The position numbers and the translations under genes were made by a program. Under the pieces are notes generated by a model. That model was not told the DNA's origin, made no database searches, and saw nothing but the letters and a program-made list of their open reading frames with translations. From the NCBI RefSeq assembly GCF_003334405.1, contig NZ_QOWM01000027.1: a stretch of DNA of 35,140 nucleotides; one strand, written 5' to 3'. The DNA is from Escherichia coli. Its GTDB lineage: Bacteria > Pseudomonadota > Gammaproteobacteria > Enterobacterales > Enterobacteriaceae. Positions 16,433 to 35,140 of the stretch are shown piece after piece. Every line of letters begins with the position of its first letter. Position 1 is the stretch's first letter.

Positions 16433-17332
16433 ATGCTCTCTCGACATATCAATTATTTTCTTGCCGTGGCTGAACATGGCAGCTTCACCCGTGCCGCCAG
16501 TGCGTTGCACGTCTCCCAACCTGCGCTTTCCCAGCAGATTCGCCAGTTAGAGGAGAGTTTAGGCGTGCCGCTGTTTGACCGTAGCGGGCGAACGATTCGT
16601 CTCACTGATGCAGGAGAAGTCTGGCGACAGTACGCCAGCCGGGCGTTACAGGAACTGGGGGCGGGTAAACGGGCGATTCATGATGTTGCCGATCTGACGC
16701 GAGGATCGCTGCGTATCGCCGTCACCCCCACCTTTACGAGCTACTTTATCGGCCCCTTAATGGCGGATTTCTATGCGCGCTATCCCAGCATCACGCTCCA
16801 GCTACAGGAAATGTCGCAGGAGAAAATCGAGGATATGCTTTGCCGCGACGAGTTGGACGTTGGGATTGCCTTCGCGCCTGTGCATTCGCCGGAGCTGGAG
16901 GCAATTCCTTTACTGACAGAAAGTTTAGCGTTAGTCGTGGCGCAACATCATCCGCTGGCCGTCCATGAACAGGTGGCGTTGAGTCGCTTGCATGATGAAA
17001 AACTGGTCCTGCTCAGCGCGGAATTTGCCACCAGAGAGCAAATTGACCACTACTGCGAGAAAGCGGGGCTACATCCACAGGTGGTCATTGAGGCGAACTC
17101 AATTAGCGCGGTTCTGGAGCTGATTCGCCGCACTTCCCTTTCCACATTGTTACCAGCAGCGATTGCCACACAACATGACGGGCTTAAAGCTATTTCTCTT
17201 GCCCCGCCACTACTGGAGAGAACGGCGGTTTTGTTGCGGCGGAAAAATAGCTGGCAGACAGCCGCCGCGAAGGCATTTTTGCACATGGCGTTGGATAAAT
17301 GCGCGGTTGTTGGCGGAAATGAATCACGGTAG
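16433..17332 (+). CDS. cynR: LysR-family transcriptional activator of the cyn operon
   Basis: Recognised 299-aa protein starts [41 protein letters not shown] (HTH) at ATG 16433; ORF-track entry is over-extended to 16349; divergent from cynT. Confidence 0.9.
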
Positions 17333-17848
17333 CCGCTGACACAGGTCTGCGGCTGGAATTGCCTGATGCGCTACGCTTATCAGGCCTACGAGTTCAGTGC
17401 TCTACGTAGGCCGGATAAGGCGTTCACGCCGCATCCGGCATAAACTACAGCTGGCAGACAGCCGCTGCGAAGGCATTTTTGCACATGGCGTTGGAGGAAT
17501 GCGCGGTTGTTGGCGGGAATGAATCACGGTAGCCGCTGACACAGATCAGCGGCTGGAATTGCCTGATGCGCTACGCTTATCAGGCCTACGAGTTCAGTGC
17601 TCTACGTAGGCCGGATAAGGCGTTCACGCCGCATCCGGCATAAACTACAGCTGGCAGACAGCCGCTGCGAAGGCATTTTTGCACATGGCGTTGGAGGAAT
17701 GCGCGGTTGTTGGCGGGAATGAATCACGGTAGCCGCTGACACAGATCAGCGGCTGGAATTGCCTGATGCGCTACGCTTATCAGGCCTACGAGTTCAGTGC
17801 TCTACGTAGGCCGGATAAGGCGTTCACGCCGCATCCGGCATAAACTAA
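17249..17848. repeat. Three tandem 200-bp repeat units, each = last ~84 bp of cynR + a small hairpin + a REP pair
   Basis: ctggcagaca at 17251, 17451, 17651 and gaatcacggtagccgctgac at 17321, 17521, 17721 (period exactly 200). Units 2 and 3 are identical; unit 1 (the functional cynR 3' end) differs at ~7 positions. Confidence 0.9.
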
Positions 17849-17868
17849 GCTCGCTGTAACCCAGTCGT

Positions 17869-19152
17869 TCAACGTTTGTAATCGATGGCTTCTGGCTGCT
17901 CCAGATATACGGTGGTTTGTGCCGGTTGTGTGCTGGCAATCACCTTGCCGCCACGTACCGAATAACGTACCGGAACCTGACGGCGCAGCGCATCAAACCC
18001 ATTTTCAGCCGGCAGGATAATCAGGTTGGCGCTGTTTCCGGCGGCAATGCCGTAATCCTGCAAATTCAACGTCCTTGCGCTGTGGTGGGTGATTAAATTC
18101 AGGCCATCGTTAATCTGCCCGTAGCCCATCAACTGGCAAACATGCAGCCCCATATGCAGCACTTGCAGCATATTCGCCGTTCCCAGCGGATACCACGGAT
18201 CGAAGACATCATCGTGACCAAAGCAGACGTTAATGCCGGACTCCAGCATCTCTTTAACGCGCGTGATGCCGCGACGTTTTGGATACGTATCGAAACGTCC
18301 TTGCAGATGAATATTGACCAGCGGGTTGGCGACAAAGTTAATACCGGACATTTTCAGCAAGCGGAACAGGCGTGAGGTATACGCCCCGTTATAGGAGTGC
18401 ATTGCCGTGGTGTGGCTGGCGGTGACTCGCGCGCCCATGCCTTCATGGTGCGCCAGGGCAGCAACTGTTTCGACAAAGCGCGACTGCTCGTCATCGATCT
18501 CATCACAGTGAACGTCGATGAGACGGTCGTATTTTTGCGCCAGGGCGAAGGTTTTATGCAGCGACTCCACGCCGTATTCACGGGTAAATTCAAAATGCGG
18601 AATCGCCCCCACTACATCTGCCCCTAAGCGTAACGCCTCTTCCAGCAACGCTTCACCGTTGGGATACGACAAAATCCCTTCCTGAGGGAAGGCGACGATT
18701 TGCAGATCAATCCACGGCGCGACTTCCTGCTTCACTTCCAGCATTGCTTTCAGCGCAGTTAGCGTTGCATCCGAAACATCGACATGGGTACGCACATGCT
18801 GAATGCCGTTGGCAATCTGCCATTTCAGCGTTTGCCATGCGCGTTGTTTCACATCGTCATGGGTTAATAACGCTTTGCGCTCGGCCCAGCGTTCAATGCC
18901 TTCAAACAGCGTGCCGGACTGATTCCAGTTCGGTTGTCCGGCGGTTTGCGTGGTGTCCAGGTGAATATGTGGCTCCACAAACGGCGGTATAACTAAACCT
19001 TGTTCGGCATCCAGGCTGTTTTCAGTTATGGGCATCACGCCGGATTGCGCATCAATGGCGCTGATTTTTCCGTCCTGCAGATGAATCTGCCACAGCCCCT
19101 CTTCGCCTGGTAACCGGGCGTTAATAATTGTTTGTAAAGCGTTATTCGACAC
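17869..19152 (-). CDS. codA: Cytosine deaminase
   Basis: Recognised 427-aa protein begins (GTG start at 19150..19152) [37 protein letters not shown]...; amidohydrolase HxH motif ([10 protein letters not shown]); ORF-track entry extended 5 codons to an upstream ATG. Confidence 0.9.
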
Positions 19153-20401
19153 TGTTAGCCTCCACATGCGTCATTGCTGCTGTCGTTTTACGATTCAAAA
19201 TCGGGTTAAGGATCAGATAGCTCAGCGCGCCACCTAATACCGCGTTGACCGGAACAATTCCCGGTAACCAGTGGCCTGCAGCAATCCCCAAGGCGACCGC
19301 CAGAATCGCCACCCAATTGACACTCATCATACGCGTGGTCGCAAAGTGCTCATAGCGGCGACGGTTCATCAGATAGTCGGCGATGATCACGCCACCCACT
19401 GGAGGAATAGCTGCCGAAAGGAAGGTCAACCAGCCGACAAAATTGTTATACAGCCATAATGCGCAGACCGTACCGATAATACCGTTGATTACCGAAAGGG
19501 TTTTGCTCGACATCCCGGTAATGTTGGCGAAACCTAAACCCGACGCATAGAGTGCGTTATCGTTGGTGGTCCAGATATTCAGCCCCAGCACCACAATCGC
19601 AGGCAGCAGCAGGCCCTGAGCAATCATCACATCAGAGATATCCGCCATGCCCAGTGCCGCAGCGCCCGCTGCACCGAAAATAAACATCAACGAGTTGCCG
19701 AGGAAAAAGGCCACCATCGCCACCAGCACCGCCAGTTTGGCATTGCGACCAAACCGGACAAAGTCAGCGGTGAGCGTACCCGCACTGATAAATGACCCCA
19801 CAACCAGCGCCAGCGCGACATTGAAATCTAACGGTTGTGCGGGAACGACCGCTTTTAATGCGTCCAGGCCGCCCATGCCGTTAACAGCCAGCCACACGGA
19901 ATAACCGCCCAGGCAGGCGATAGCCGGAACCGCAATCACCGAAAGAACCGTCAGCGCCGAAATGCCAAAAAAGACGGTGACGGTCATCAGTAAACCGGAA
20001 ACGGCAATCAGCAAATTAATATCCAGCCCGGTTGCCTTACCCACCGGAATGGCAAACATCGCCACACCGACGCCAAACCAGCCAACCTGAGTTCCGCCCA
20101 GTAGCAGTGAAGGCAGCCATGAGCCTTTAACACCAAACGAGAAGCGAGCAAGAAGATGAGTGGTCAGGCCGGTTTTTGCGCCAATGTAACCGAGAAATGA
20201 AGTGTAAATACCGAGGAGAAGATTACCGATGAGAACTGCGAGGAAGAAATCATGATAGCTAAGACCGGTTCCGAGAGTGCCGCCGGTCCACATACTGGCG
20301 GAAAAGAAGGTTAATCCCAGCATGACGAACGTCAATGCCAATACCCCTTTCCGCGCCGACTGCGGGACTGGCCCCTGGCTAAAGTTGTTATCTTGCGACA
20401 C
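19142..20401 (-). CDS. codB: Cytosine permease (NCS1 family)
   Basis: 419-aa [44 protein letters not shown]...; first codon is GTG (cac on + strand at 20399..20401); 11-nt overlap with codA. Confidence 0.93.
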
Positions 20402-20467
20402 GAAATTCCCCCTTTTTGCTGTTTGAAACCCAAAAAATCCGCCGCATTCTATTCATCTGAAGATAAA

Positions 20468-20483
20468 AAGCAATCGTTTTCGT
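20468..20483 (-). promoter_or_regulatory. Candidate PurR box upstream of codB
   Basis: Minus strand reads ACGAAAACGATTGCTT, close to the PurR operator consensus ACGCAAACGTTTTCTT; 67 bp upstream of the codB start. Confidence 0.55.
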
Positions 20484-20553
20484 GGGGAAATATATTTTTT
20501 ATATGAATGAGTGCAAAAAGGTGGGGGAAAAATTATCGGTGTAAAAACAGTGG

Positions 20554-20632
20554 GTAGGCCTGATAAGACGCGTCAGCGTCGCATCAGGCATCGGCACACA
20601 GTGCCGGATGCACCGCGCGACGCATCCGACAA
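20554..20632. repeat. REP pair between prpE 3' end and the codB promoter
   Basis: gtaggcctgataagacgcgtcagcgtcgcatcaggc ... gccggatgcaccgcgcgacgcatccgac, abutting the prpE stop codon. Confidence 0.8.
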
Positions 20633-20636
20633 TAAC

Positions 20637-22522
20637 CTACTCTTCCATCGCCTGGCGGATCTGATCCAACGACGCAGGATCATCAATGGTCGTCAGATCT
20701 CCAGGATCGCGTCCTTCGCAAATCGCCTGGATCGTGCGGCGCAGCATTTTTCCGGATCGCGTTTTTGGCAATTGCGAGACAAACCAGACGTGCGCCGGGC
20801 GGCCAAAGTTGCCAATCTGGCTGTCCACCAGCGCCATAATCGCCTTCTCTTGCGAGTGCGCCACATCACGATCTTCCAGACTGTCGCTCTCTTTCGGAAT
20901 GACAAACGCCACCGCCACCTGCCCTTTCAGCGCATCTTTCACCCCAACCACCGCCACTTCGGCAACGCCCGGATGGCTGGAGATACTCTCTTCAATCTCG
21001 CGCGTCCCCAGCCGATGCCCGGCAACGTTAATTACATCGTCAGTGCGCCCGAGAATAAAGTGATAACCGTCAGCGTCACGGATGCCCCAGTCAAAGGTGG
21101 CGTACACCGGGCGGGAAAACAGCGACCAGTAAGTCTTCACAAAGCGGCCGTCGTCGCCCCAGATGGTCTGAATACACCCCGGCGGCAGCGGCCCTTCCAC
21201 CACCAGCATCCCTTTCTCGTTGACGCCACACGGTTCGCCGGTGACTTCATTAAGCAACTGCACGTTATAGCCATACATCGGCACACCGGGGCTTCCCAGA
21301 CGCGTCGGCCTGTCGTCCAGACCGCGAGCAATCGCCATAATCGGCCAGCCGGATTCGGTCTGCCAGTAGTTGTCGATGACCGGCACATCCAGCGTATTGC
21401 TCACCCAACTGGCGGTCGGCTCGTCCAGCGGTTCTCCAGCCAGATAGAGCACTTCCAGCGACGAGAGATCGTGTTTGCGAATTTCAGCGGTAGGGAATTT
21501 TTTCAGCACGCGAATGGCGGTCGGCGCTGAGAACATCCGGCTAACCTGATATTTCTCGACGATTTTCCACCACACGCCGCAGTCCGGCCAGGTCGGCAAT
21601 CCTTCGTAAACGATAGTCGCCATCCCCGCCAGCAGCGGCGCGTAAACGATATACGAATGCCCCACCACCCAGCCGATATCCGATGCGCAAAAGAACACGC
21701 TGCCCGCTTTGCCGCCAAAAATGGTGTCCATCGAGGTCGCCAGCGCCACCGCATATCCGCCGACGTCACGCTGCACGCCTTTAGGTTTGCCGGTCGTGCC
21801 GGAAGTGTAGAGAATGCAGGAGGTTTCGTTGGATTCCAGCCACGCCACCGGTACCCGCGCGCCGATGTGTTGATGGCGCAACGACGCGAAATCGACATCC
21901 CGCCCGCTGACGCGCGCCATTTTCGCCAGCCCGCGATCCACCAGCAAAACATGGCGTGGCTGGTGCTGCGCCTGACTTATCGCATCGTCGAGCAATTTTT
22001 ATAGGGAATGATTTTGCCACCGCGCGCTCCGGCATCAGCCGAGACAATCAGCACCGGTTTAGCGTCATCAATTCGCGCCGCCACGCTGTGCGAGGCAAAT
22101 CCACCAAACACCACCGAGTGAATAGCGCCAATGCGCGCGCAGGCCAGCAGAGTAATATGCGCTTCGGCAATCATCGGCATATACACCAGCACCCGATCGC
22201 CGCGCTGCACACCCAATGAACGCAACATTGAGGCCACCGCGTTCACTTCGTCATGCAGCTGACGAAAGGTAAAGGTGCGCTCTTCTTCTGTTTCCGAAGA
22301 GACGGCAATCAGCGCCAGCGCCTCTGGCTGTTTCTCCAGCCAGCGGTCGATGGCGTTGTGGCACAAGTTGGTTCGGCCTTCACAAAACCAACGGGCAAAC
22401 GGCGGATTGCTGTGATCGAGCGTTTGCGTAAAGGGCGTCTGCCAGTCAATACGCCGGGCCTGCTCGGCCCAGAACTGCTCCGGTTCGTTAATCGAACGCT
22501 GATAAAATTCGCTAAAAGACAT
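20637..22522 (-). pseudogene. prpE: Propionyl-CoA synthetase gene interrupted by a frameshift (two ORFs: 21977..22522 and 20637..21995)
   Basis: N-terminal ORF MSFSEFYQRSINEPEQFWAEQARR... ends ...GGKIIPYKNCSTMR-stop; the downstream ORF continues LDDAISQAQHQPRHVLLVDRG... with the AMP-binding motif YTSGTTGKPKG. The frames differ by one nucleotide at an A5 run (T5 at 21996..22000 on +). Confidence 0.8.
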
Positions 22523-25216: not shown

Positions 25217-25257
25217 GTTGTCCTCGTCATTGTTATCATTTGTAGGGTCGAGATTGT

Positions 25258-25536
25258 TGTCGGATGCGACGCTATGCGTCTTATCCGACCTACAGTTCAG
25301 TTCACCCCGTAGGCCTGATAAGTCGCGTCAGCGGCGCATCAGGCATCGGTTGTCGGATGCGACGCTATGCGTCTTATCCGACCTACAGTTCAGTGCACCC
25401 CGTAGGCCTGATAAGTCACGTCAGCGGCGCATCAGGCATCGGTTGTCGGATGCGACGCCATCCGTCTTATCCGACCTACAGTTCAGTGCACCTCGTAGGC
25501 CTGATAAGTCGCGTCAGCGACGCATCAGGCATCGGC
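25258..25536. repeat. REP/BIME array: three tandem 93-bp units in the prpC-prpB spacer
   Basis: tgtcggatgcgacgc at 25258, 25351, 25444; each unit carries two REP palindromes (ggatgcgacgctatgcgtcttatccgacctac / gtaggcctgataagtcgcgtcagcggcgcatcaggc); units differ at a few positions. Confidence 0.9.
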
Positions 25537-25562
25537 TGTCGAATACAATCAACGGGCGTTTT

Positions 25563-34970: not shown

Positions 34971-35020
34971 GTTGTTATGTCCGCTACAGAGGGTGATGGG
35001 GTTATGACCAACGCCAGACT

Positions 35021-35140
35021 GCCTGATGCGCTACGCTTATCAGGCCTACAATTCTCGCGCCACTCGTAGGCCGGATAAGGCGTTCACGCCGCATCCGGCA
35101 ATGGTGACAAATGCCTGATGCGCTACGCTTATCAGGCCTA
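35021..35140. repeat. REP elements upstream of yahI (run off the window end)
   Basis: gcctgatgcgctacgcttatcaggcctac ... gtaggccggataaggcgttcacgccgcatccggc ... gcctgatgcgctacgcttatcaggccta. Confidence 0.85.

Follow-up and report, generated by a model that had tools for sequence, protein, structure and literature searches.

The window analysed here is a stretch of 35,140 nucleotides of Escherichia coli DNA (contig NZ_QOWM01000027.1 of assembly GCF_003334405.1), in which the genes mhp, lac, cyn, codAB, prpEDCB, prpR and yah follow one another antisense to the MG1655 map. Apart from the REP arrays, the window is collinear with and 99.97-99.98% identical to MG1655, with about ten substitutions and one 1-bp deletion, in agreement with the close relationship to K-12 that a preliminary description of this DNA had proposed. 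It represents a phylogroup-A relative of K-12 whose only structural differences from the reference are in REP-array copy number.

The prpE-codB intergenic spacer occupies positions 20402-20636 and comprises, on the minus strand, first the prpE 3' untranslated region and then the codBA control region. It is bounded by the prpE stop codon TAG (20637-20639, minus strand), with which the RefSeq prpE annotation in the identical sequence of strain 300709 agrees, and by the codB start codon GTG (20401-20399, minus strand). These boundaries confirm the spacer length of 235 bp given in the preliminary description. In MG1655 (NC_000913.3), the end of prpE at 354592 and the start of codB at 354922 leave a spacer of 329 bp between them; the spacer of K-12 GM4792 is also 329 bp long. 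The MG1655 length and the difference of 94 bp given in the preliminary description are both exact. Pairwise alignment of 20380-20660, the spacer and its borders, pairs 281 of 281 window bases with identical bases in K-12 and opens one 94-bp gap, within the REP region; there is no difference from K-12 in 20402-20567. The 94 bp correspond to exactly one period of a Z2-Y tandem array, as expected from the earlier estimate that about one REP-containing unit is missing.

Control elements of codBA

Upstream of the GTG codon, a Shine-Dalgarno sequence AAGGGGGAA is located at 20414-20406 (minus strand), and the core codBA promoter spans 20432-20473 on the same strand. We infer that its hexamers are TTGCTT (-35, 20473-20468) and TAGAAT (-10, 20451-20446), separated by a 16-nt spacer. 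The start-site candidates are G 20439 and A 20438 (minus strand), and a T6 tract suited to UTP-dependent reiterative transcription (20437-20432, minus strand) follows directly. This assignment is preferred because the start sites fall right before the T6 tract and the PurR box lies over the -35 hexamer. Another combination returned by a consensus promoter scan, TTTGCA-17-TATATT at 20517-20489, was not adopted as the codBA promoter. Farther upstream, an ATA-N9-TAT motif ATATAAAAAATATAT (20490-20504, minus strand), identical in K-12, is a candidate for the codBA NAC site reported by Muse, Rosario and Bender (2003). At codBA, reiterative transcription and a UTP-sensitive switch of the start site are mentioned in a later article that refers to the original work (PMC12709180, citing Qi and Turnbough 1995), and the T6 tract, placed as it is directly behind the start-site candidates, fits both published phenomena.

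The PurR operator ACGAAAACGATTGCTT (20468-20483, minus strand), which overlaps the -35 hexamer, has the same sequence as in K-12. It has one mismatch to the consensus ACGNAAACGTTTGCNT and is the sole match in the 35-kb window at up to two mismatches, a threshold at which about 0.38 sites are expected by chance. The candidate operator of the preliminary description was exact in both coordinates and sequence, and a search with the PurR box consensus returns this one site in the window. Letter for letter, it is the codB-codA motif listed in Table 1 of a PurR ChIP-chip study, which reported a PurR peak at codBA in K-12 and 34.5-fold repression of codB by adenine (PMC3159470). The published K-12 site does not differ from that of the window and is simply conserved. 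As for other PurR operators of the pur regulon, which share the 16-bp palindrome ACGNAAACGTTTGCNT, its overlap with the promoter -35 hexamer is typical for repression of initiation by PurR. The operator was also described as lying next to the REP pair. Both elements are indeed located in the spacer, but they are not adjacent, being 70 bp apart with the NAC-like site between them.

From the edge of the missing segment, it is 70 bp downstream to the PurR operator and 166 bp to the codB start codon. K-12 and the window have the same sequence in the PurR box, the NAC-like site, both promoter hexamers (-35 and -10), the T tract and the Shine-Dalgarno sequence, and with every one of these sites preserved, control of codBA by PurR, NAC and UTP should be unaffected by the deletion. 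As the codBA control region is intact, length differences at REP loci should not be read as regulatory novelty. Outside Escherichia, in a contig of Hafnia paralvei (L014, 8235-9591), similarity to the window sets in at the PurR box, about 85 nt before the codB start, and extends across the promoter into codB with 84% identity; nothing there matches prpE or the REPs. By this comparison, the PurR box is where the conserved control module begins.

The REP pair downstream of prpE

On the prpE side, the spacer contains two opposed REP palindromes that appear as two inverted repeats, each able to form a stem-loop. The prpE-proximal element (20602-20631, minus strand), a degenerate Y-type REP, begins 5 nt past the prpE stop codon, forms a 13-bp hairpin and is unchanged relative to K-12. 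An 11-nt linker (20591-20601, minus strand) separates it from a Z2-type REP (20554-20590, minus strand), whose GTAG head is found on the plus strand at 20554-20557. Folding gives -18.5 kcal/mol for the Y hairpin and -22.4 kcal/mol, with z = -5.1, for the Z2 hairpin. On the minus strand, positions 20557-20631 match the Rfam model naRNA4, which describes a Y-Z2 REP pair, with 54.5 bits and E = 3.3e-9. The Z2 REP aligns near-perfectly with the second (Z2) hairpin of the naRNA4 consensus. The element at 20602-20631 aligns with the first (Y) hairpin; its stem is altered at the top, it lacks the flanking CTAC, with GACAATAAC standing where GGCCTAC is expected, and it is best called a degenerate Y. 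The single REP pair noticed earlier is borne out by the inverted repeats, the naRNA4 match and the stable hairpins, and its reported direct contact with the prpE stop holds in the sense of a 5-nt gap. The pair is best described as a single BIME-2 unit composed of Z2 and a degenerate Y.

The score of 54.5 bits lies below the naRNA4 gathering threshold of 59.5 bits, and the match documents only the REP-pair architecture, not membership of that RNA family. Rfam matches to mir-5856, snoR11, snoR12, U4 and STnc540 scored far below their thresholds and are attributed to chance. The minus strand between 20350 and 20700 yielded no intrinsic terminator-like site, and the prpE sense strand has no U run behind either of the REP hairpins.

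The spacer pair shares the inverted Z2 and Y-like REPs with a short linker, and tandem units whose number at prpE-codB varies between strains, with the BIME-2 arrays of the Gilson, Bachellier and Hofnung classes (Ton-Hoang et al. 2012, PMC3333891). It differs from them in that the window has one unit only and that its prpE-adjacent Y REP is degenerate, with no CTAC/GTAG tetranucleotide and an altered stem top. The same two-hairpin Y-Z2 layout on the sense strand of the upstream gene is seen in REP325/naRNA4 (RF02564), the BIME-2 array between yjdM and yjdN, although REP325 has 12 hairpins compared with two in the prpE-codB spacer. The spacer pair is not known to give rise to a separate RNA.

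REP arrays act as mRNA stabilisers and partial terminators; in the case of REP325, which lies between tandem genes, the mRNA of the upstream gene is stabilised and part of the transcription ends before the downstream gene is reached (bioRxiv 10.64898/2026.03.23.713779). By analogy, the two hairpins of the spacer would block 3' exonucleases and presumably stabilise the prpE mRNA, and they may also weakly attenuate read-through towards codBA. Attenuation is speculative because two- to four-hairpin fragments in the REP325 study had no detectable Rho dependence (bioRxiv 10.64898/2026.03.23.713779). According to a brief account of the original study, REPs influence translation when they lie within 15 nt of a stop codon, where they are reported to stall terminating ribosomes (Liang et al. 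2015, via PMC12306157). The proximal REP, 5 nt from the prpE stop, lies inside this reported range and is the same in the one-unit and K-12 alleles.

Origin of the 94-bp length difference

The array of K-12 has the order Z2-Y-Z2-Y and consists of two units. Both of its Z2 copies read GTAGGC[C/A]TGATAA[G/A]ACGCGTCAGCGTCGCATCAGGCATC, so that their last 25 nt are identical. This 25-nt block ACGCGTCAGCGTCGCATCAGGCATC occurs twice in K-12, 94 bp apart, and once in the window, at 20568-20592. At both sites that vary between the K-12 copies, the window has the bases of the distal copy (C at 20560 and G at 20567), and the linker and Y REP that come after the 25-mer are those specific to the K-12 proximal unit. 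Judged by these positions, the window Z2 is a chimera of the two Z2 copies of K-12, joined within the 25-mer, and the comparison shows that the alleles of window and K-12 differ by one exchange within this block. The missing 94 bp equal one period and have both ends inside the 25-nt repeat common to the two Z2 REPs, and the length difference is for this reason a REP-mediated indel, as the preliminary description had suspected.

The BIME-2 array in the prpE 3' untranslated region is polymorphic, and the window carries its one-unit allele, which very probably arose by one deletion from a two-unit allele like that of K-12. The crossover would have fallen inside the 25-mer shared by the two directly repeated Z2 REPs, and the 94 bp lost in one step would comprise the right-hand portion of the distal Z2, the distal Y REP and the left-hand portion of the proximal Z2. 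Replication slippage or short-homology recombination would be the likely process, with hairpin formation probably helping. The direction of change, a loss in the window-type lineage and not a gain in K-12, is probable rather than proven; it is deduced from the divergence of the K-12 units and from the presence of distal-like units in longer arrays elsewhere. The two K-12 units differ at more than ten positions across the Y REP and linker, so the two-unit allele is not a recent duplication of the unit found in the window. Units resembling the K-12 distal unit are found in the arrays of RCAD0514 (three units), O157:H7 (eight) and JSWP006 (nine); on this sequence comparison, the distal unit is old.

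Across genomes, the prpE-codB locus was found with one, two, three, eight or nine units at a period of about 94 bp. The spacer is 235 bp long in the one-unit alleles of the window, strain 300709 and E. coli B, and 236 bp in those of STEC316 and TUM14759. Two units give 329 bp in K-12 and 324 bp in TUM17543, three units 424 bp in RCAD0514, eight units 893 bp in O157:H7 ECP19-198 and nine units 985 bp in JSWP006. With an 86-nt junction-specific query (E <= 1e-28), the window-type junction was detected in 177 of the 5,426 complete genomes; E. coli B, Z226-5, 300709 and BL21 with its derivatives are among them. Descent and recurrent deletion cannot be separated among these 177 genomes because the product is the same wherever in the 25-mer the crossover takes place. 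For the K-12-type stretch, the count of 1,153 is an upper bound, as its identity band includes partial matches. A figure of 473 records in the band of at least 99% identity was dropped as an allele count, since it includes 100%-identity partial matches that end at the REP. E. coli B and the window have about 200 differences over 35 kb, none of them in 18467-21199, which includes codB and the whole spacer. In view of these differences and of the K-12-like alleles that B has at the other two REP loci, the window is not from E. coli B, although the 235-bp spacer is common to both. The number of BIME-2 copies at a particular locus varies between strains (PMC3333891), and the one-unit prpE-codB allele is a common allele of this already described polymorphism, situated beside a published operator.

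The one-unit state could be old, as one-unit alleles are also present in the distant lineages STEC316, TUM14759 and the MAG L016. It might then be the window that preserves the older state, with K-12 and the other two-unit genomes having gained a unit by insertion or strand transfer, for example when the TnpA-REP transposase or gene conversion from another BIME-2 locus brought in a BIME unit from elsewhere. In vitro, BIMEs are cut and recombined by TnpA-REP, for which a role in their amplification has been proposed (PMC3333891), and the distal Y REP of K-12, in which TGTCGGATGCGACGCGAGCGCCTTATCCGAC adjoins CTACGGTTCAGG, is closer to the canonical form than the proximal Y REP, which is what one would expect of an imported unit. 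We nevertheless regard such a gain as unlikely. The other one-unit alleles carry a different Z2, GGCATAATAAGACGCGGTAAGCG, which is that of the proximal unit of the three-unit array and not the chimera; one-unit states must on this evidence from STEC316 and TUM14759 have arisen more than once, and these alleles represent independent events rather than the ancestor of the window. A gain would also require an insertion precisely permuted inside the Z2 REP, compared with which a deletion between direct repeats is simpler, and multi-unit arrays with the same distal unit are widespread.

The short spacer would be an artefact if two tandem REP units had been collapsed during assembly of a short-read contig. 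Since both ends of the window fall in REP arrays (1-201 and 35020-35140), like contigs broken at repeats, the window appears to be a draft short-read contig, in which tandem repeats can be mis-assembled. It also has several private differences, including a homopolymer-length change in prpE, that may be sequencing errors. At prpE-codB, however, the same junction is found in the 177 complete genomes, E. coli B and the close relative Z226-5 among them, and Z226-5 also shares the allele shorter by 93 bp at prpB-prpC and the base of the window at 21565. Moreover, the K-12 units have just the 25-nt exact repeat in common and are otherwise divergent, which makes a collapse unlikely at the usual k-mer sizes. 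We consider an artefact at this spacer highly improbable and retain the deletion from a two-unit allele as the origin of the junction; the copy numbers of the internal REP arrays deserve read-level confirmation. The array at the window start (1-201, mhpE-mhpT) has a period of 101 bp and that at the window end (35020-35140, yahG-yahH) one of 93 bp, and each gives a naRNA4 match above the gathering score.

A strict scan of contigs with the PurR box and -10 hexamer as query recovered no named Escherichia species other than E. coli. It returned a divergent 'E. coli' with nine REPs, a one-unit E. coli-like MAG and Hafnia paralvei; two Vibrio matches of the same scan had no similarity to the prpE-codB locus and were set aside. 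SCPM-O-B-8794 (L015, 5340-5790), about 94% identical to the window in prpE and codB, has an array of nine REPs with a period of about 99 bp, in which a Z2 REP, not a Y REP, adjoins a prpE TAA stop. In VG35A2 (L012, 3151-4671), a transposase gene of the IS110-family element IS621 is located between codB and prpE, and similarity to the window ends at the start of the Z2 REP (window position 20557). Insertions of the IS621/IS1397 type into REPs are another mode of variation, represented in VG35A2 at the same REP locus; the window has no insertion sequence.

Other REP arrays and point differences in the window

Two further REP loci differ in copy number from K-12. According to Tandem Repeats Finder, the array in the codA-cynR spacer (17249-17851) has 3.0 copies of a 200-bp unit compared with 2.0 in K-12, and the BIME array in the prpB-prpC spacer (25256-25541) has 3.1 copies of a 93-bp unit compared with 4.1. 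The preliminary description had listed copy-number changes of +200, -94 and -93 bp at three REP loci, and all three are as stated. For the +200 locus, the copy difference stands, but the repeated unit is a 200-bp composite of a REP pair and other sequence and not a bare REP pair. The three-copy codA-cynR allele recurs with 100% identity in many complete genomes, DA33133, M217 and ECONIH6 among them, and RefSeq places 'hypothetical protein' calls inside this array. In the prpB-prpC array, one unit (25312-25383, 63.1 bits) reaches the naRNA4 gathering score; the short allele is common to the window and Z226-5 and is not found in E. coli B or DA33133.

Among genomes with differences at fewer than 0.05% of sites, the alleles of the three loci occur in independent combinations. 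Relative to K-12, E. coli B has only the -94 allele at prpE-codB, with no change at codA-cynR or prpB-prpC. Z226-5 combines -94 at prpE-codB with -93 at prpB-prpC and is unchanged at codA-cynR. DA33133 has only the +200 allele at codA-cynR, and the window has all three (+200, -94 and -93). None of the best 30 complete-genome matches has the three window alleles together, and the best match is without the +200 allele. Between near-identical E. coli genomes, no feature changes faster than the REP arrays, which makes them usable as fine-scale markers.

It is conceivable, if rather doubtful in our estimation, that the number of BIME-2 units, from one to nine, acts as a heritable, rapidly mutating dial of prpE mRNA stability, PrpE yield and read-through into codBA. 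If this were so, one-unit alleles would insulate the prp operon and codBA least, and, as the REP loci assort independently, such dials would be reset faster than point mutations accumulate. The allelic series of one to nine units offers a convenient natural test set for the roles of REPs in mRNA stability and termination.

Among the point differences, a T6 run of K-12 in prpE, a minus-strand gene, is a T5 run in the window (21996-22000; A6 to A5 on the sense strand). The change shifts the frame after codon 175 and leads to a stop at residue 181 of 628; the open reading frames at prpE are 20637-21995 and 21977-22522. It is absent from K-12, Z226-5, DA33133 and E. coli B, and represents a private mutation that makes prpE a pseudogene, or else a sequencing error in the homopolymer. 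In mhpR, two substitutions 4 bp apart (6977 and 6981) change Leu92 of MhpR to Arg, the second of the two being silent; K-12 and DA33133 both have the other bases at these positions. At position -1 of the lac promoter (8779), the window has GTGTGAAATTGTGAGCGG where K-12 has GTGTGGAATTGTGAGCGG, with A and not G before the transcription start. DA33133 agrees with the window at this site, and the G at lac -1 may be peculiar to K-12.
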